From Parcubacteria group bacterium Gr01-1014_56 (GTDB lineage Bacteria > Patescibacteriota > Minisyncoccia > Phycocordibacterales > SBAW01), in assembly GCA_007375995.1 (NCBI GenBank), contig VMFK01000001.1:1-43043 (forward strand): a DNA stretch of 43,043 nucleotides, read 5' to 3'. Numbering within the stretch: position 1 is the stretch's first letter; each line of letters begins with the position of its first letter. This document shows, one piece after another, positions 2,006 through 23,252 of the stretch. The notes beneath the pieces were generated by a model. The model was not told the DNA's origin. It saw nothing but the letters and a program-made list of their open reading frames with translations, and made no database searches. A program made the position numbers and the translations under genes.

Positions 2006-2016
2006 AAATAGACTTG

Positions 2017-2088
2017 TGACCCTACCGGGAATCGAACCCGGATTAACGGCTTGAAAAGCCGGCGTCCTAACCGTTAGACGATAGGGCC
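2017..2088 (-). tRNA. tRNA-Glu (anticodon UUC)
   Basis: Hand-folded cloverleaf: acceptor GGCCCTA/TAGGGTC, T arm CCGGG-TTCGATT-CCCGG, anticodon loop TTTTCAA. No encoded CCA. Confidence 0.85.
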
Positions 2089-3070: not shown

Positions 3071-3076
3071 ATCCTG

Positions 3077-3149
3077 TGCGCGATAGAGGACTCGAACCTC
3101 TGACCCTCCCCACGTCAAGGGGATGCTCTACCAACTGAGCTAACCGCGC
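3077..3149 (-). tRNA. tRNA-Val (anticodon GAC)
   Basis: Acceptor GCGCGGT/ATCGCGC, D arm AGCTCAGTTGGTAGAGC, anticodon loop TTGACGT, T arm AGAGG-TTCGAGT-CCTCT. Confidence 0.85.
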
Positions 3150-3197
3150 GTGTTCAAAACAATAGCAAAAACAACGATTCTGCGCTATACCAACAGT

Positions 3198-4238
3198 ATG
3201 AAAGTGCTTGCGATAGAAACCTCCTGCGACGAGACAGGAATAGCGATTGTTGAGGGAGAAAAGATTTCTGACGGTTTTTCTTTTACTGTGCATAAAAACG
3301 TCTTGCTCTCCCAAGCGGCTCTCCACGCAGAGTTTGGGGGTGTATACCCCAATCTCGCTAAGCGCGAACATCAAAAAAACCTCCCTGTTTTATATGAGCA
3401 GTTTAAAGATGAGGTGGTGGATGCGATCGCAGTTACTCAAGGCCCTGGGCTTGAGCCTGCGCTGTGGACCGGTATCGAATTTGCAAAAAAAGTTGCAGCC
3501 GAGCGCGGCGTGCCGCTCCTCCCTACTAATCATATGGAAGGGCATTTAATTTCTTCTCTAGTACAAAATGGAAAACTCGAGAAAGTTGAGTTGCCTGTGC
3601 TTGCACTCCTTGTCTCCGGCGGACACACAGAGTTTGTTTTAATGGAGAGCTGGTTTAAGTATGAAGTTATCGGCGAGACGCTTGACGACGCTGTGGGCGA
3701 AGCGTTCGATAAAGTTGCGCGTATGCTTGGCTTGGCTTACCCTGGGGGCCCCGAGATTTCCAAATACGCCTCCCAAGCCCGTGAGCAAGGTTTAACCTTG
3801 CTCAAAACACTACCGCGGCCAATGCTCAGGTCGGACAATTGTGATGTCTCGTTCTCTGGCCTCAAAACCGCGGCACTCTACGCACTGCGCGGAAAAGAAT
3901 TATCTGAAGATGAGAAAAAAGCCTTCGCACGTGAGTTTGAGGACGCGGTCACAGAAGTATTTTTAGTAAAAACAAAACGTGCGCTTGAGGAGACAGACGC
4001 AAAAACGTTTGTCATCGGCGGAGGAGTTGCCGCAAATACTTATTTGAGAGAAAAACTGAAGGCGGTCGTTAAATCTGCGTTTGCTGAAGTAGACTTTCTC
4101 CTCCCTGAACGTTCGATAACTGGCGACAATGCGATCATGATCGCTGAAGCCGCACTCGCTCGCCGTCTCTCCGGACTTGACGACTCCGACCAGGGAGATT
4201 TCCGCGCTGTTGGAAATCTCTCAATAGAAAAAGATTGA
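3198..4238 (+). CDS. tsaD: tRNA N6-adenosine threonylcarbamoyltransferase TsaD
   Basis: MKVLAIETSCDETGIAIV, HMEGH and LVSGGHT motifs. The ATG at 3198 is chosen because the GTG at 3150 abuts tRNA-Val (3077-3149). TGA stop at 4236-4238. Confidence 0.9.
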   Translation: MKVLAIETSCDETGIAIVEGEKISDGFSFTVHKNVLLSQAALHAEFGGVYPNLAKREHQKNLPVLYEQFKDEVVDAIAVTQGPGLEPALWTGIEFAKKVAAERGVPLLPTNHMEGHLISSLVQNGKLEKVELPVLALLVSGGHTEFVLMESWFKYEVIGETLDDAVGEAFDKVARMLGLAYPGGPEISKYASQAREQGLTLLKTLPRPMLRSDNCDVSFSGLKTAALYALRGKELSEDEKKAFAREFEDAVTEVFLVKTKRALEETDAKTFVIGGGVAANTYLREKLKAVVKSAFAEVDFLLPERSITGDNAIMIAEAALARRLSGLDDSDQGDFRAVGNLSIEKD

Positions 4239-4465
4239 GCCGCCCGGGTTAGGGACGGCTCTGGTGAGACAACGTCAACGTCGCTTTTGATAGCATCATT
4301 TTTCTCGTCTCACTAATTAAGTGCGGGGCATTGTTCTCTTCGACCAAAATGATCAAGTTTAGCTTTGCCCCGCCCGTGCTTTCGCACGGTATTAATTGGT
4401 GGTGACATCTTTCGAATCGTCTTTATAGACAAATCACCCAACGTCACCACCCTGCCTTGCGGCAG
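4237..4465 (-). ncRNA. Structured RNA unit, distal 3' copy (hairpin 4237-4261; modules 4264-4313, 4323-4373, 4398-4451; GNRA hairpins 4374-4389 and 4452-4465)
   Basis: It has the same stems, in the same order, as the unit at 6172-6399. The tetraloops read GAAA/GCAA only on the minus strand. The terminal hairpin GAGCCG...CGGCTC is followed on the minus strand by AATCTTTTTC. Confidence 0.5.
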
Positions 4466-4480
4466 AATGCAAAGAACTTT

Positions 4481-4737
4481 CGGCGGACACCTCATTTGAA
4501 GTCTCAGACAAGACACTAAAATGGTCGTCCGCCGTCCGCATGCCGAAGCTTACGGAATAGGGTGAGGGGTCAAAGGACCGAGCGTATTTCTAAGAGCGAA
4601 ACACAACCTCCATCACGACCCCTCTTTTCAACATCCGATGTTCAGATACTGGAAAGAGAGGCGAAGTGTGCTTGCACACTTCGCCGATGAGACATACTAT
4701 TTTTTGCTCAACAGAGCAGATAATCGTTCGTCTCATC
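4481..4737 (-). ncRNA. Additional RNA modules directly 3' of the recombinase ORF (module 4686-4737, GC hairpin 4660-4685, stem 4564-4624, module 4481-4534)
   Basis: Modules 4686-4737 and 4481-4534 have the 12-hairpin-12 layout. Their stems co-vary with the copies at 6199-6249 and 6330-6383. Confidence 0.4.
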
Positions 4738-4739
4738 CA

Positions 4740-6050
4740 TCACGCTGCTTTTTGACGAACTTCCACCTGCCGCATTGAGGGATACTCAGGGTCGAGCACG
4801 AACTTTTCAGGATCCCCTTCATACCTTGTCCACTCGCGGTAGAGCCACATCACAAACTGCGAGAGCGTGCGCCAGATGGCCATCTTGTGGATATGGCCAT
4901 TGGTGTACTTTTTCACGCCCTTCTCGTCTGCAACCGGTTCTGGATGCACACGTCTGAAGTATGCCTTGTTCGCAAGGAGCTTTTGGCCCCAGTACGAACC
5001 TGGTCGCCTGTTGAACTGGTCGCCAAGCAGATACAGCGCTTGCCGTACATCTGGGTTCCAGTTTGAAAGTTGACCGCTTCTCCTCCTTGGGAACTTCCCA
5101 TTAAGAAGAATGTGCACGCCAGCAAAGGCCTTGAACTTCGTCTTGTCAGAAAACCGCCTGATATCGACAACGCCCGAGACGACGCGCGAGGCAATTGCCC
5201 AGCCCATGCCTTCGATGTCACCGATGACGCTTTGCCATACACCTGTCGCTTTGACGAGCTTTTCGAGCTCACGCTCGCGCCTTGCTTCTTCGGCCAACAT
5301 TGCCAGTAAAATAGCGTCGTTTGCTTTTGCTTCATCGTATTGCTTCTCCAAGTCTCCTTCAGGGAAATACCCGTCAGGACGGCAGAAGATTGATCCAATG
5401 AAACGTTGGCGTAGACGCTGTTCACAAGCAATACGTGCCTTCATCACATCAATGCGAGCACCAAATGCTACCCGCACAGCGATGATCTCGCGGTCGCGCG
5501 GACGCACTTCGTAAAAATGCGTAGGCGTTGCAAGAAATGTGCGTGCAAGAAGCTCGGCATCGTTGTCTTTCGTTACCTCATTACGAAGCATTTTGAGCTT
5601 CGCGGCTGGCATACGATACACAGTAGCTCCGATTTCTTCGCCGCGACGCGCAAGCGCCAAGGCAGAGTAATCGCCGGAACCGCCGAGCACCATAGCAACA
5701 CAGTCGTCTTTTTTGAGGCCATCAAAACGATCCGCAACCTTCTCAATACGATATAGGTCGCGACCAATCATTCTGGTTTGTACGCCCTCGGGCACAACTT
5801 CGTTCTTCTTCACTTTGCGAAGCTTCAGATAGTGGTCTGGGATACTTGATGCAACATCTTCGCCTGCTTGAAGCGGGCGGAAATGCGTCGGGAATGTGCC
5901 AAGCAAGAAATCATATTCTGCTTGTTCGTCCTCAAGCATATAACTCCCGAGAACTGCTCCCATCTCGCTCAACATGACGACTTGCGTCGGGCGAGCTTCG
6001 CCCTCGGCAGTCTGTTTAACGCGGTGGCGAATGCCAATAATGCGTGTCAT
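4740..6050 (-). CDS. Divergent IS110/IS1111-family (Piv-type) recombinase-like protein
   Basis: The C-terminal half resembles the IS110 Tnp domain (GDIEGMGWAIASRVVSGVVDIRRFSDKTKFKAFAGV, RRRSGQLSNWNPDVRQALYLLG). The middle resembles the RuvC-like part (VAMVLGGSGDYSALALA, TKDNDAELLA). AAGGAG lies 7 nt before the ATG at 6050. TGA stop. Confidence 0.6.
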   Translation of the reverse strand: MTRIIGIRHRVKQTAEGEARPTQVVMLSEMGAVLGSYMLEDEQAEYDFLLGTFPTHFRPLQAGEDVASSIPDHYLKLRKVKKNEVVPEGVQTRMIGRDLYRIEKVADRFDGLKKDDCVAMVLGGSGDYSALALARRGEEIGATVYRMPAAKLKMLRNEVTKDNDAELLARTFLATPTHFYEVRPRDREIIAVRVAFGARIDVMKARIACEQRLRQRFIGSIFCRPDGYFPEGDLEKQYDEAKANDAILLAMLAEEARRERELEKLVKATGVWQSVIGDIEGMGWAIASRVVSGVVDIRRFSDKTKFKAFAGVHILLNGKFPRRRSGQLSNWNPDVRQALYLLGDQFNRRPGSYWGQKLLANKAYFRRVHPEPVADEKGVKKYTNGHIHKMAIWRTLSQFVMWLYREWTRYEGDPEKFVLDPEYPSMRQVEVRQKAA

Positions 6051-6171
6051 GCACGTACTCCTTTTTCTCTGGTTTCTAGTTCGTCTGCAAAGCAGACATG
6101 TCAAAGATCTAAAAAGATCAGCGGAGGCAACCCTCCTCTCGGGCGCCGGATAACCAGCACACGGGAGGAAG

Positions 6172-6399
6172 GGCGAAGCGTATTTCTACGCTTCGCCTGA
6201 TGAAACATGTCTTGATTCGCTCAATGCGCATGACAAACTTTGTTTCACCAATAAATGCGGGGCATTTTTCCTCTCGCTCAAAAAGCAAAGACGTGGTCGC
6301 CCCGCCCGTGCTTTCGCAGGGAATTAACTGGTGGTGACAACCTCATTATCGTTCTTACGAACAAAAGGTGTTTCGTCACCACCACTGCCTTGCGACAGA
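6172..6399 (-). ncRNA. Structured RNA unit 5' of the recombinase ORF (GNRA hairpins 6386-6399 and 6306-6321; modules 6330-6383, 6257-6305, 6199-6249; GC hairpin 6172-6197)
   Basis: Three 12-hairpin-12 modules plus GNRA-capped hairpins, co-oriented with the ORF. Two plus-strand mismatches become G-U pairs on the minus strand. Confidence 0.5.
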
Positions 6400-6503
6400 A
6401 TTTGAATAAGCTTTCTCCTTACTTTGTACTATATAAAGATATATATGTCAATACAACCACTCGCCTGCTGTTAAAGGAAGCTTAATTTGTTAGGATAAAC
6501 TCC

Positions 6504-9182
6504 ATGCCAGAGAAGTTTAAGAAGCCCTATGACCACACAGCTGTGGAGGCTGCGGTGTATAAAAAATGGGAGGAGTCGGGCTACTTTAACCCCGATAACC
6601 TACCCGGCGAGCGCAAAGAGGTCTACTCGATCATAATGCCGCCTCCCAATGCCAACGGCTCGCTCCACGTGGGCCATGCCCTCTTTGTGACGCTCCAAGA
6701 CCTGTTTATCCGCTACAAGCGTATGTCTGGATTTAAGACCTTGTGGCTCCCCGGAGCAGACCATGCCGGTTTTGAAACACAGTTAGTGTATGAAAAAAAA
6801 TTAGAGAAAGAGGGCCGCTCACGCTTTAAGATGGACCGCGATGAGTTTTATAAAGAGACACTTGCCTTCACACAAACAAACAAAGTATTTATGGAGAGCC
6901 AACTCCGGCAGCTAGGCGCCTCCTGCGATTGGTCACGCGAGAAATTTACACTTGACCCGGACATTATAAAAACAGTTTATGGAACATTTGAGCAGCTTTA
7001 CAAAGACGGCCTCGCCTACCGCGGTGTGAGGCCTGTTAATTGGAGTACAAAATACCAAACCTCGCTGTCTGATTTAGAAACTAAAACAATTGAGCGAAAA
7101 GATCCGTTGTACTACCTTAAATACGGGCCGTTTGTGTTGGCAACCGTACGCCCTGAGACAAAATTTGGCGACACTGCTGTTGCGGTTAACCCAAATGACA
7201 AACGCTATCAAGAGTGGGTCGGCAAAGAAATTGAATTTGATGGTCTTATCGGCCCAGTCAAACTTAGAGTTATTGCAGACGAGTATGTCGACATGGAGTT
7301 TGGCACTGGCGTTGTCAAAATCACTCCCGCGCACGACCCGAACGACTTTGAGGTTGCACAGCGCCATGGCCTCCCCGCAGTCGAGGTGATCGACAAATAC
7401 GGCAGACTGACAGAAAAGTGCGGTAAGTATGCTGGCATGAAGGTGATGGAAGCGCGCGCGGCTGTTGCAAAAGACCTTGCGGAAAAAGGATTGCTAGAAA
7501 AAGTGGACGAAAACTATACCCACACGATTTTAGTTAACTACAAAAACGAAAACGATATTTTAGAGCCTCGAATCATGCCGCAGTGGTTTATTAAGATGCA
7601 ACCGTTGGCAGAAAAAGCTCGCGAGGCAGTCGAGCAAGGAAAGATAAAATTTGTCACCGACTACCACCAGAAAATATTCTTTCATTGGCTCGATAACTTG
7701 CGCGACTGGAACATCTCACGCCAAATCATTTGGGGCATCCCTATCCCCGCGTGGTATTGCCTCAAGTGCAAAAAACCACAAATAAATTTCAAAATAAAAT
7801 CTAAATGGTTTCTGATAAGGCACGGGTTAACTGAACTAAACGTAAAAGAACTCCTCCAAGGAATGAGCGACTCTAAGCTCACCCCTGAAGGCATTGCCCA
7901 GGCAAAAGCCGCGGGAGAGCGTCTAAAAAATCAGGGTATCGCTATGATAATTAGCTCAGACCTTGGCCGATGTAAGGAAACATCTGAAATAATTGCTGAG
8001 GCAATAGGCGCATCGATTGTATATGATGAGATTTTGCGAGAAAGAGATTTTCGCTCTCTTGAGAAAACATCGTACAAGGATTTTATGGAGAAACAGACGG
8101 TGCCTGGAGTACGCAATTATGACATTCGCCTGGCGGATGAGGAAACGTACCAAGAGGTGGAGGAGCGAGTATGGGGCGCTTTTACAAAACACCAAGCAGA
8201 GCATGGGGGGAAAAATATACTGATAGTAAGTCATGGTGCGGTAACTCGCGCGCTATTAAAAAAGATCAAAGACCTCACTCCGGGTGACGCAATGAGTACG
8301 CCTGCGGTAGAAAATGGCGAAATTTTTGCCCTTGAGGTATCCGAGGACCCCTGTTCTCAATGTGGTGGAGACCTTTTTGAGCACGACAGCGACACCTTTG
8401 ACACATGGTTTTCCTCCGGCCAGTGGCCGTTTGCGACGCTTGGCTACCCAGACTCGTCGGATTTCAAAACCTACTACCCAACGAACGTGATGGAGACCGG
8501 GTATGACATTCTTTTCTTTTGGGTGATGCGGATGATCATGCTTGGGCTCTATCGCACTGGCGAGGTGCCGTTTCGCGATGTGTATTTGCACGGACTTATC
8601 CGCGATGCGAACAAGCAGAAGATGAGTAAGAGCAAGGGCAACGTTATCAACCCGCTTGATGTTGCGAGTGTGTACGGGACTGACGCTTTGCGTATGGCGC
8701 TCTTGGTCGGTAACACTCCAGGGGCTGATATGTCGCTCGCAGAGGATAAAATTAAAGCGTATAAACTATTCTCAAACAAACTCTGGAACATCGCGCGGTT
8801 CGTGCTTGATGGTACAGACGGTACGGTGCCAGGAGCGTTAAACGAAGCTGATCAAAAGCTGCGCGACGAGTGCGACGCGCTTATTGTGGACGTGACTGAG
8901 GACCTCAATAAATATCGCGTGTATATGGCGGCTGAAAAGCTCTACCATTATATCTGGGACCGCTTAGCCGCTGAGATTCTTGAAGAAAGTAAACCTCTGC
9001 TCAAAGGTTCTGACGCGGCGGCAAAGTCATCACGCCAAACACTCCTTCTCTCTCTCCTATCAGACTCACTTAAACTTCTGCATCCGTTTATGCCCTTTGT
9101 GACTGAGGAGATCTGGGGCTCAATGCCAGGAACTCGGGACCTGTTGATGGTTGAAGCATGGCCATCCAAAGCCAGCGAATAA
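6504..9182 (+). CDS. valS: Valine--tRNA ligase with a nested histidine-phosphatase domain
   Basis: HIGH-type PNANGSLHVGHAL, editing-domain TRPET..GDTAV and GTGVVKITPAHDPND, DTWFSSGQWPF, KMSKS. An insert with RHG/SHG motifs lies between CLKC and CSQC. Confidence 0.9.
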   Translation: MPEKFKKPYDHTAVEAAVYKKWEESGYFNPDNLPGERKEVYSIIMPPPNANGSLHVGHALFVTLQDLFIRYKRMSGFKTLWLPGADHAGFETQLVYEKKLEKEGRSRFKMDRDEFYKETLAFTQTNKVFMESQLRQLGASCDWSREKFTLDPDIIKTVYGTFEQLYKDGLAYRGVRPVNWSTKYQTSLSDLETKTIERKDPLYYLKYGPFVLATVRPETKFGDTAVAVNPNDKRYQEWVGKEIEFDGLIGPVKLRVIADEYVDMEFGTGVVKITPAHDPNDFEVAQRHGLPAVEVIDKYGRLTEKCGKYAGMKVMEARAAVAKDLAEKGLLEKVDENYTHTILVNYKNENDILEPRIMPQWFIKMQPLAEKAREAVEQGKIKFVTDYHQKIFFHWLDNLRDWNISRQIIWGIPIPAWYCLKCKKPQINFKIKSKWFLIRHGLTELNVKELLQGMSDSKLTPEGIAQAKAAGERLKNQGIAMIISSDLGRCKETSEIIAEAIGASIVYDEILRERDFRSLEKTSYKDFMEKQTVPGVRNYDIRLADEETYQEVEERVWGAFTKHQAEHGGKNILIVSHGAVTRALLKKIKDLTPGDAMSTPAVENGEIFALEVSEDPCSQCGGDLFEHDSDTFDTWFSSGQWPFATLGYPDSSDFKTYYPTNVMETGYDILFFWVMRMIMLGLYRTGEVPFRDVYLHGLIRDANKQKMSKSKGNVINPLDVASVYGTDALRMALLVGNTPGADMSLAEDKIKAYKLFSNKLWNIARFVLDGTDGTVPGALNEADQKLRDECDALIVDVTEDLNKYRVYMAAEKLYHYIWDRLAAEILEESKPLLKGSDAAAKSSRQTLLLSLLSDSLKLLHPFMPFVTEEIWGSMPGTRDLLMVEAWPSKASE

Positions 9183-10476: not shown

Positions 10477-10552
10477 GTTATGGCGTGTGCACTGTCTCGA
10501 AGACTCCCAGTACACACTAAAAATGTACTCGCAAAGCCTCCTTATTTTTAGG

Positions 10553-10625
10553 TGCTTGGGGCCGGGATCGAACCGGCGACCCCCTCCTCTTCAGGGAGAT
10601 GCTCTACCAACTGAGCTACCCAAGC
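10553..10625 (-). tRNA. tRNA-Phe (anticodon GAA)
   Basis: GCTTGGGTAGCTCAGTTGGTAGAGC..., anticodon loop CTGAAGA, T arm GCCGG-TTCGATC-CCGGC. Confidence 0.85.
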
Positions 10626-10941: not shown

Positions 10942-11013
10942 TGCCCTCGCCAAGAGTCGAACTTGGATTCTCGCGTTAGGAGTGCGAAGTTCTGTCCGTT
11001 GAACTACGAGGGC
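10942..11013 (-). tRNA. tRNA-Arg (anticodon CCU)
   Basis: GCCCTCGTAGTTCAACGGACAGAAC..., anticodon loop CTCCTAA, T arm CCAAG-TTCGACT-CTTGG. There is an A31-C39 mismatch. Confidence 0.8.
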
Positions 11014-11327: not shown

Positions 11328-11398
11328 GCGGGATTAGTTCAGTGGCAGAACGAGTGCTTCCCAAGCATTAGGCGCGAGTCCGATTCTCGCATCCCGCA
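11328..11398 (+). tRNA. tRNA-Gly (anticodon CCC)
   Basis: GCGGGATTAGTTCAGTGGCAGAAC..., anticodon loop TTCCCAA, T arm GCGAG-TCCGATT-CTCGC. Confidence 0.85.
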
Positions 11399-23126: not shown

Positions 23127-23167
23127 CTTGGATTTTCAACAGCGTAGGAACGCTAAGAAAATCTCGG
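23127..23167 (-). repeat. Conserved structured 3' trailer of tRNA-Ser (copy 2); a partial third copy lies at 23065-23087
   Basis: Same sequence as 2136-2176, except that the inner stem AGCAT/ATGCT is AGCGT/ACGCT here (a compensatory pair). Confidence 0.7.
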
Positions 23168-23252
23168 CGGAGGGTGAGAGATTCGAACTCTCGATACCTT
23201 TCGGTATGCCGCCTTTCCAAGGCGGTGCACTAGACCACTATGCGAACCCTCC
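23168..23252 (-). tRNA. tRNA-Ser (anticodon GGA)
   Basis: 85 nt with a long variable arm. Anticodon stem-loop CCGCC-TTGGAAA-GGCGG, T loop TTCGAAT. Confidence 0.85.

Follow-up and report, generated by a model that had tools for sequence, protein, structure and literature searches.

A probable chromosomal stem-loop TIGR-Tas locus with a predicted nuclease-dead TasR in a Parcubacteria bacterium

TIGR-Tas systems were first described as a class in 2025 (Faure et al. 2025, PMC12045711), in a study that derived IS110 elements, TIGR-Tas and box C/D small nucleolar ribonucleoproteins (snoRNPs) from a common ribonucleoprotein with a Nop domain. The stem-loop TIGR arrays reported there have palindromic stems instead of edge repeats, two spacers of 8-12 nucleotides (nt) with box C/D motifs and a variable linker, and they are associated with a clade of TasR proteins from candidate phyla radiation (CPR) bacteria in which the RuvC domain is inactive. 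In this CPR clade the arrays lie on both sides of tas, a hairpin occupies the inter-spacer loop, the RuvC domain has an insertion of ~80 residues, a Y/H processing loop is missing, and RNA-guided repression takes the place of cleavage (Xu et al. 2026, bioRxiv 10.64898/2026.09.09.750476). Here we describe a locus of Parcubacteria group bacterium Gr01-1014_56, analyzed over the entire 43-kb contig that carries it (hereafter the window), which is very probably a chromosomal stem-loop TIGR-Tas system of the RuvC-dead TasR clade and an RNA-guided DNA binder or repressor.

The locus occupies a 2.26-kb gap between tsaD (3150-4238, plus strand) and valS (6504-9182, plus strand). The gap contains one long open reading frame (ORF) on the minus strand (4740-6050), whose 436-amino-acid (aa) product is annotated in the contig as a hypothetical protein. 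This protein belongs to the TIGR-Tas family and is a TasR. It matched the full profile of NCBIfam NF052498 (TIGR_Tas_endo, "TIGR-Tas system RNA-guided endonuclease") with aa 193-409, scoring 132 bits against a cut-off of 100. The nearest solved relative by sequence was the TasR of PDB 9MTY (TaTasR), with an E-value of 2.7e-9 for the single sequence and 4e-22 for a profile of 42 homologues, and IS621 reached an E-value of only 0.017 in the same comparison. In addition, alignment to the full TaTasR sequence with hhalign gave a probability of 99.1%. The AlphaFold (AF2) model of the protein had a predicted local distance difference test (pLDDT) score of 91, and its top Foldseek match was again 9MTY (E 1e-12), followed by IS621 (E 9e-8) and ISCro4, and then by TasH. 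In the model there is a beta-rich insertion (aa 40-116) between RuvC strands 3 and 4, together with long coiled-coil helices, and the same RuvC beta insertion and coiled-coil features were reported for CsTasR of Candidatus Staskawiczbacteria (Xu et al. 2026). The conserved C-terminal Y/H processing loop is not present in the window TasR.

The non-coding flanks of tasR, 6503-6051 and 4745-4230, folded better than shuffled sequences (z = -7.7 and z = -11.7, respectively). They contain nine minus-strand copies of one module, in which a stem encloses a 12-nt strand, a mini-hairpin and a second 12-nt strand; three copies (M1 to M3) are upstream and six (M4 to M9) downstream of tasR (Table 1). Our first module scanner (stem of at least 6 bp, strands of 10-13 nt) was too loose, giving about 240 matches per strand, and was replaced by motif-anchored scans and a covariance model. 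For the model (R1), 22 modules were taken from four other loci and none from the window, which was then scanned with filters off. The protein of one of these loci, L001, is 83% identical to the window TasR and its locus is syntenic; those of L003, L004 and L005 are 59-63% identical and have different neighbours. The model identified exactly nine sites in the window, each of them within the tsaD-valS gap and on the minus strand, and nothing below E = 2 in the rest of the 43 kb. As the modules had been picked for pairing, the percentage of paired positions is no independent evidence; such evidence comes from the covariance-model scan of the window. The low score of M5 reflects a penalty for its long inner hairpin. 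An Rfam search of the locus gave no family match even at E <= 1.

The anatomy of the module was determined from 43 modules of the five loci. Position 1 of the 12-nt strands was G in 41/43 modules for strand A and 38/43 for strand B, and position 2 was A in 36/43 and 32/43, respectively. Positions 3-11 were near uniform, and position 12 was U in all 43, the set having been filtered beforehand for U at this position. Each strand is preceded by a closing C and followed by a closing G, so that the full order is C, GA, N9, U, G. C-G-A is box C, N9 is a 9-nt spacer and U-G is box D; with two such spacers per unit, this is the architecture of a tigRNA, and it has the same layout as the tigRNA of TaTasR (CCA, 9-nt spacer, UG; PMC12045711). 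Compensatory changes were found in 8 of 11 stem pairs, with a covariation score of 0.70 compared with 0.25 for shuffles.

The modules were assigned to the minus strand because of their covariance-model scores, tetraloops, box order and terminator. For the nine sites the minus-strand scores were 16-45 bits, compared with 10-23 bits for the plus strand. Read on the gene strand, the inner hairpins have GNRA tetraloops in eight cases and UUCG in two; the opposite strand gives neither. The order of two unpaired nt before the spacer, one after it and then UG fits the minus strand only, and it is on this strand that the array-terminal hairpin is followed by a U-run, an element that also closes the downstream cassette of L001. 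Counts of G-U against A-C stem pairs favoured the gene strand weakly, most pairs being Watson-Crick; in the inner hairpin of M8, for example, a G-U pair is possible on the minus strand only. In M3 the closing stem, GGUGAAAC/GUUUCAUC, includes one G-U pair and the strands are AAAGUUUGUCAU and GAAUCAAGACAU; there is a single mismatch in the inner hairpin, and strand A has a degenerate box C (AA).

In L001, L003, L004 and L005 the modules were likewise confined to the two intergenic flanks of the tasR homologue and to its strand, and no modules were found in the outer 3-4 kb flanks of these four loci. As the modules flank only the homologous gene, and on its strand, they are no generic genome repeat. 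A pattern scan for the cassette scaffold in a genome collection that did not include the source genome returned mostly chance matches in high-GC genomes and re-found only the organism of L001. That genome (L033, GTDB representative CAYZZC010000003.1) is labelled "uncultured Candidatus Saccharibacteria bacterium", yet its locus and synteny closely match those of the present Parcubacteria contig, so that either label may be taxonomically imprecise.

A first-pass annotation of this DNA, made from its letters alone, had listed eight modules. All are present and fold as described on the minus strand, and the covariance model added a ninth at 4564-4624 (M5). Its placement of the RNA on the gene strand and its view that the stems are conserved or co-vary agree with the results above. 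The outcome that it had named as refuting, a genome-wide repeat of the repetitive extragenic palindromic (REP) type unconnected with this gene family, was not observed in the window or in the outer flanks of the four related loci. Two details needed correction. The module at 6199-6249 (M3), for which one strand of 10 nt had been given, has 12 nt in both strands when its register is set by cassette alignment with its paralogues, and a GCAA loop placed at 6391-6394 is at 6390-6393. The remaining GNRA loops and two G-U pairs were as it had described.

The active site of the window TasR was compared with those of TaTasR and IS621. TaTasR starts with MDNDITILAVD(11)WS and later reads VIIVAE(43)NI. 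In the window protein, IIGIR(8)HR ends model strand 1 and corresponds to the ILAVD of TaTasR with its D11, and VAMVLG(123)GSGD ends strand 4 and corresponds to E43 (VAEN). The DxxD motif of TaTasR and IS621 (D102 and D105 in IS621) aligns to K161-D162-N163-D164, with the final acid alone kept. The four RuvC/IS110 catalytic (DEDD) positions are therefore R8, G123, K161 and D164, and N317 is aligned with the YESG serine that serves as nucleophile in IS621. Among the 42 homologues R8 is nearly invariant and H9, R10 and G123 are invariant. With the RuvC fold kept and three of the four catalytic acids replaced, the protein is most likely a nuclease-dead TasR, as judged from its sequence and model, and a complex built on such a RuvC domain most likely binds DNA without cutting it. 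CsTasR, which has R8 and V126 at the first two catalytic positions, acts as a transcriptional repressor and does not cleave DNA (Xu et al. 2026).

With family and fold, module architecture, strand, box motifs, the link of modules to gene and the loss of catalytic residues all observed at the locus, every sequence-readable feature of the published CPR TasR clade is present, and the locus therefore very probably belongs to that clade. The lines of evidence on TIGR-Tas systems that require small-RNA sequencing or pull-down have been published for CsTasR, PlTasA and TaTasR. By analogy with CsTasR, PateTasR and TaTasR, on which our proposals for processing, dimer binding, DNA targeting and repression are based, a minus-strand transcript would start upstream of about 6400, include the three upstream tigRNA units, tasR and the six downstream units and end at the terminator at 4261-4226, and it would be cleaved in the linkers to give stem-loop tigRNAs of about 50-60 nt. 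The closing stem of 7-10 bp and the inner hairpin of 3-7 bp would keep the two strands, each with its C-G-A, N9 and U-G, open. A TasR dimer would bind one tigRNA via its Nop domains, with one protomer per box C/D pair, and spacers A and B would pair with opposite strands of a single 18-bp DNA site, composed of A and the reverse complement of B. The bound, most likely uncut, DNA would then be blocked for transcription or replication.

Several observations weigh against this assignment. Box C is C-G-A here and CCA or CUU in published examples. A sigma-70 promoter scan of the region upstream of the array found no consensus promoter. The mapping of D11 and E43 was made by motif and by secondary structure and model, without a statistically supported alignment, and hhalign to TaTasR left residues 1-136 unaligned. 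Moreover, the acids D116, D127 and D164 are invariant or nearly so among the 42 homologues, and residual or relocated catalysis via these nearby residues is conceivable. The search for targets was also negative. With the geometry taken from the published tigRNA1 of TaTasR and its target oligos, in which one strand reads spacer A and then the reverse complement of spacer B (for M1, AACACCTTTACCTCATTA), no site with up to 3 mismatches was found in the window besides the array, and a second geometry also gave none. Exact scans of viral contigs gave 0 matches for M1, 1 for M5, 0 for M6, 1 for M7 and 1 for M9, which is chance level, as a control with the wrong geometry gave 1. The matched contigs had a GC content of 54-62% for the correct geometry and 35% for the control, compared with 49% here, and no contig was matched twice. 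The authors of the TIGR work warn of chance matches for 18-nt targets. The non-conservation of spacers, considered below, argues mildly against fixed host-gene targets.

Given the invariance of D164, and D116 and D127 being invariant or nearly so, we considered whether the protein might, like TaTasR or ParTasR, be an active RNA-guided nuclease that cuts invading DNA, with an unconventional or relocated RuvC site. An active TasR is known from Parcubacteria (ParTasR; PMC12045711), and the NCBIfam family is named for an endonuclease, although the match to it spans the Nop domain only. We regard this explanation as unlikely. The first catalytic Asp, whose replacement in TaTasR (D11A) abolishes activity (PMC12045711), is an Arg in the window protein, the Glu is a Gly and the third acid a Lys, and cleavage was not seen in vitro with CsTasR, which has the same R8 (Xu et al. 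2026).

A second explanation is that the locus encodes a bacterial analogue of the box C/D snoRNPs, in which another enzyme is recruited by the dead RuvC domain and rRNA or tRNA, not DNA, is the substrate to which the 9-nt spacers direct modification. Faure et al. (2025) speculate that the CPR clade might be an intermediate towards these particles, and both the Nop fold of the protein and the box C/D-like motifs of the RNAs are in keeping with it. However, none of the spacers matched any of the seven tRNAs of the window, single 9-nt spacer matches in the window were at chance level (7 observed, 7.4 expected), and the spacers are not conserved among relatives, which is unexpected for guides against conserved rRNA or tRNA. 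In addition, the structure of CsTasR was determined with DNA bound, and the protein is a transcriptional repressor (Xu et al. 2026). Based on these data, a role in RNA modification seems very improbable.

The first-pass annotation had favored a third explanation, a mobile element of the IS110/IS1111 type, with the ORF as its RNA-guided recombinase and the modules as target and donor loops of one or more bridge RNAs. There is some basis for this, as IS621 is the second-best structural neighbour, the loop geometry resembles that of bridge-RNA loops, and the hmmscan that it had proposed gave two weak Pfam matches of 21.6 bits each (E about 2e-4), one to Transposase_20, marginally above the gathering score of 21.3, and one to DEDD_Tnp_IS110 (PF01548), below the gathering score of 29. 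The NCBIfam IS110 model NF033542, by contrast, gave 48.5 bits against a cut-off of 140. With this score below its cut-off, and with three DEDD residues and the catalytic serine replaced, the window TasR is not an IS110 recombinase. The nine modules lie on both sides of the gene and do not form a single two-loop RNA 5' of it. As L001 holds the locus between the same two genes, valS and tsaD, the locus is not mobile in this lineage, and no loop strand was complementary to the locus boundaries, to any junction or to the rest of the window. We therefore give this explanation almost no credence. The first-pass annotation was nonetheless partly right, since it had spotted a real RNA-guided system, with an IS110-related protein and two guide-length strands per module, and the likeness to bridge RNAs reflects real homology; it is the family, the mechanism and the idea of loops within one multi-loop bridge RNA that proved wrong. 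Finally, the idea that generic REP-like structured repeats surround an unrelated gene by chance has only the repetitive hairpin appearance in its favor and is hardly worth entertaining, given that the covariance model found no module elsewhere in the window and that the modules of the four related loci occur only beside the homologous gene.

Table 1. Features of the tasR locus (positions in the window; N9 spacers given as A and B).
Feature	Position	Strand	Sequence and structure	Covariance model
AT-rich region shared with divergent valS, presumed array promoter site	6399..6503	-	TTGACA at 6451-6446	
Linker hairpin ahead of M1	6385..6398	-	CUGUC-GCAA-GGCAG; paralogue 4452-4465 ahead of M7	
tigRNA module M1	6330..6383	-	stem GGUGGUGAC; A AACACCUUU; inner hairpin GUUC-GUAA-GAAC; B UAAUGAGGU; folds as described	44.9 bits, E 8e-9 (6332-6381)
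Linker hairpin, M1/M2 interval	6306..6321	-	CCCUGC-GAAA-GCACGG; paralogue 4374-4389 perfectly paired	
tigRNA module M2	6257..6305	-	stem GCGGGGC; A CCACGUCUU; B GAGGAAAAA	41.8 bits
tigRNA module M3	6199..6249	-	GGUGAAAC / AAAGUUUGUCAU / GCGCAUUGAGC / GAAUCAAGACAU / GUUUCAUC	18.6 bits, E 0.02 (6200-6248)
GC-rich hairpin directly 3' of M3	6172..6197	-	GGCGAAGCGUA-GAAA-UACGCUUCGCC; paralogue 4660-4685, 3' of M4	
tasR leader	6051..6171	-	small hairpins; ribosome-binding site AAAGGAG 7 nt ahead of ATG at 6050	
tasR, 436-aa TIGR-associated protein	4740..6050	-	N-terminal RuvC-like domain with beta-sheet insertion, coiled coil, C-terminal Nop (RNA-binding) domain	
tigRNA module M4	4686..4737	-	begins 2 nt past tasR stop; A ACGAUUAUC; B AAAAUAGUA	38.6 bits (4687-4736)
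tigRNA module M5	4564..4624	-	stem GAGGGGUC; A GAUGGAGGU; 7-bp inner hairpin; B UCGGUCCUU; from scanner	16.0 bits, E 0.09 (4565-4623)
UUCG-loop linker hairpin	4535-4556	-		
tigRNA module M6	4481..4534	-	stem CGGCGGAC; A CCAUUUUAG; B CAAAUGAGG	27.5 bits (4482-4533)
tigRNA module M7	4398..4451	-	stem GGUGGUGAC; A UGGGUGAUU; B UUCGAAAGA	41.3 bits (4400-4449)
tigRNA module M8	4323..4373	-	stem GCGGGGC; A AGCUAAACU; B AGAGAACAA	23.9 bits
tigRNA module M9	4264..4313	-	stem GUGAGAC; A GAAAAAUGA; B CGUUGACGU	33.9 bits
Terminator-like hairpin, array end	4226..4261	-	GAGCCGUCC...GGGCGGCUC (4261-4237), then AAUCUUUUUC; overlaps tsaD stop codon	

The linkers of the tigRNAs are themselves structured, with GCAA- and GAAA-loop hairpins that are conserved in the cassettes of L001. 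A GC-rich hairpin, GGCGAAG-NNNN-tetraloop-NNNN-CUUCGCC, is conserved directly 3' of the tigRNA with a G(G/A)UGA(G/A)AC stem, the L001 copies being at about 3515-3540 and 3857-3880. Its inner 4 bp co-vary (CGUA/UACG and UGUG/CACA), and a pyrimidine run follows both window copies, one of which lies between the upstream array and tasR and the other after the first downstream unit. We found no description of this hairpin in the TIGR-Tas papers (Faure et al. 2025, Xu et al. 2026). It may act in attenuation or as a signal for processing.

The modules are organized in larger repeats. Two three-module units of the window and three units of L001 aligned as one cassette of ~230 nt, in the order hairpin, module, GNRA hairpin, GCGGGGC module, short linker, GUGAGAC module, and GC hairpin or terminator. 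Between the two window units, 6400-6172 and 4466-4237, the scaffold was 76% identical and the spacers 31%, in line with the first-pass annotation, which had noted that the stems are conserved and the 12-nt strands diverge. Over all cassette copies the scaffold identity was 64-89% and the spacer identity 28-43%, which is near random, and for 55 modules of the five loci the distribution of spacer-spacer similarity was that of shuffled spacers.

Comparison with the syntenic locus L001 allowed this divergence to be set against that of tasR, for which the two loci show 64% identity at four-fold degenerate sites. Neutral drift of orthologous spacers would give roughly 11.5 of 18 identical positions, but the best 18-nt spacer match of each window module in L001 had a mean of 8.4, compared with 7.7 +/- 0.4 for shuffled spacers, and no window tigRNA had a recognisable spacer counterpart in L001 (3300-3880 and 5300-5735). 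In the first third of two near-identical L001 cassette copies, 7 of 18 spacer positions differed and 5 of 90 scaffold positions (Fisher p = 5e-4). The downstream cassette of L001 is a mosaic, its module 1 resembling one upstream copy and its module 2 the other. These data are suggestive of spacers that change faster than neighbouring neutral sites, partly via module exchange, with the caveats that the orthology of cassette copies is uncertain and that the scaffold is under selection. Since spacers appear to outpace neutral sites while the scaffold is kept, we tentatively raise the possibility, which we consider rather doubtful at present, that the array is a fast-evolving guide repertoire and not a fixed set of host-gene regulators. 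If this speculation is correct, it would imply a spacer-specific process of diversification or acquisition, or strong diversifying selection, and silencing in CPR bacteria that is adaptive and immunity-like would be a fitting role. Spacer turnover above the synonymous rate in two syntenic loci would also bear on how TIGR arrays gain spacers.

One exception to the randomness of spacers was observed. Spacer A of the module with a GGUGAGAC stem is almost the same in L001 (3469-3480) and L004 (3745-3756), GAAAAUUUU and GAAAAUCUU sharing 8/9 positions, although the proteins of these loci are only about 60% identical and their neighbours differ; spacer B is not conserved. M9 of the window has the same first five bases (GAAAA) as this spacer A.

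The neighbouring genes had features of their own. The valyl-tRNA synthetase (ValRS) encoded by valS has 892 aa and carries an insert at aa 429-621 (about nt 7788-8366), directly after the IPAWY motif and within the catalytic core. The insert contains an entire domain of the histidine-phosphatase family (PF00300, His_Phos_1; aa 436-615, E 8.5e-43), in which both the RHG and the SHG motif are present. The ValRS of the syntenic L001 has 723 aa and is without this insert, and we know of no described case of a ValRS with a histidine-phosphatase insert. There are seven tRNA genes in the window (2016-2088, 2175-2263, 3076-3149, 10551-10625, 10942-11013, 11328-11398 and 23166-23252), of which that for tRNA-Val(GAC), 3076-3149 on the minus strand, abuts the start of tsaD. 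In the mechanical ORF list, spurious ORFs cross several of these tRNA genes.

The class of systems to which the locus very probably belongs was published in 2025-2026, and the locus adds an example to it. It also indicates that a whole RNA-guided system, with its protein, guide architecture and strand, can be recovered from raw sequence alone. The C-G-A form of box C and the repeated three-tigRNA cassette with conserved GNRA linker hairpins are details that should be useful to the TIGR-Tas field, and the public labels "hypothetical" for the window protein and "transposase" for its relatives should be corrected.

Among the known systems, the box C/D s(no)RNPs (Nop5, Nop56/58) resemble the window locus in having a Nop domain and, as predicted for the window protein, a coiled-coil dimer and an inactive N-terminal domain. 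Their guides, too, have a pair of spacer regions, with motifs of the box C/D type at both ends of each. They differ in their kink-turn boxes, RUGAUGA and CUGA, where the window has CGA and UG, and published TIGR-Tas relatives target DNA and not RNA. No L7Ae or fibrillarin partner was identified here, though partner proteins were not searched for. IS110/IS621 (PDB 8WT6) likewise combines RuvC-like and Nop-type RNA-binding domains with RNA internal loops that hold two short guide strands. However, it has a DEDD site with a catalytic serine and a single bridge RNA with a target and a donor loop, and it is mobile, none of which applies to the window locus.

The relationship to TaTasR, from a dual-repeat system of Thermoproteota, is closer. 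Its Nop domain and RuvC fold are homologous to those of the window TasR, and the two systems have in common the two 9-nt spacers per guide, the UG of box D, the C-G pair closing each spacer region and an array that ends in a terminator. TaTasR is an active nuclease (D11, E43, DxxD), in contrast to the window protein with its lost active site, and its array has two short conserved repeats and uniform 36-nt tigRNAs, whereas the stems of the window array are variable and its units are about 50-60 nt long. Box C is CCA in TaTasR and ParTasR and CUU in PateTasR.

The closest systems are those of the CPR stem-loop clade, for instance the one of Candidatus Staskawiczbacteria (Faure et al. 2025, Xu et al. 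2026). CsTasR is larger than the window TasR (547 aa compared with 436 aa), and the window locus, which is known from its sequence, differs in the conserved GNRA hairpins of its linkers and in its repeated three-unit cassette. Otherwise the locus and this clade are alike in their CPR host and chromosomal, non-viral location, in an expanded RuvC domain that has Arg as residue 8 and is, for the window protein most likely, without catalytic activity, in lacking the conserved C-terminal Y/H loop, in their palindromic-stem units both up- and downstream of tas, and in 9-nt spacers with box C/D.

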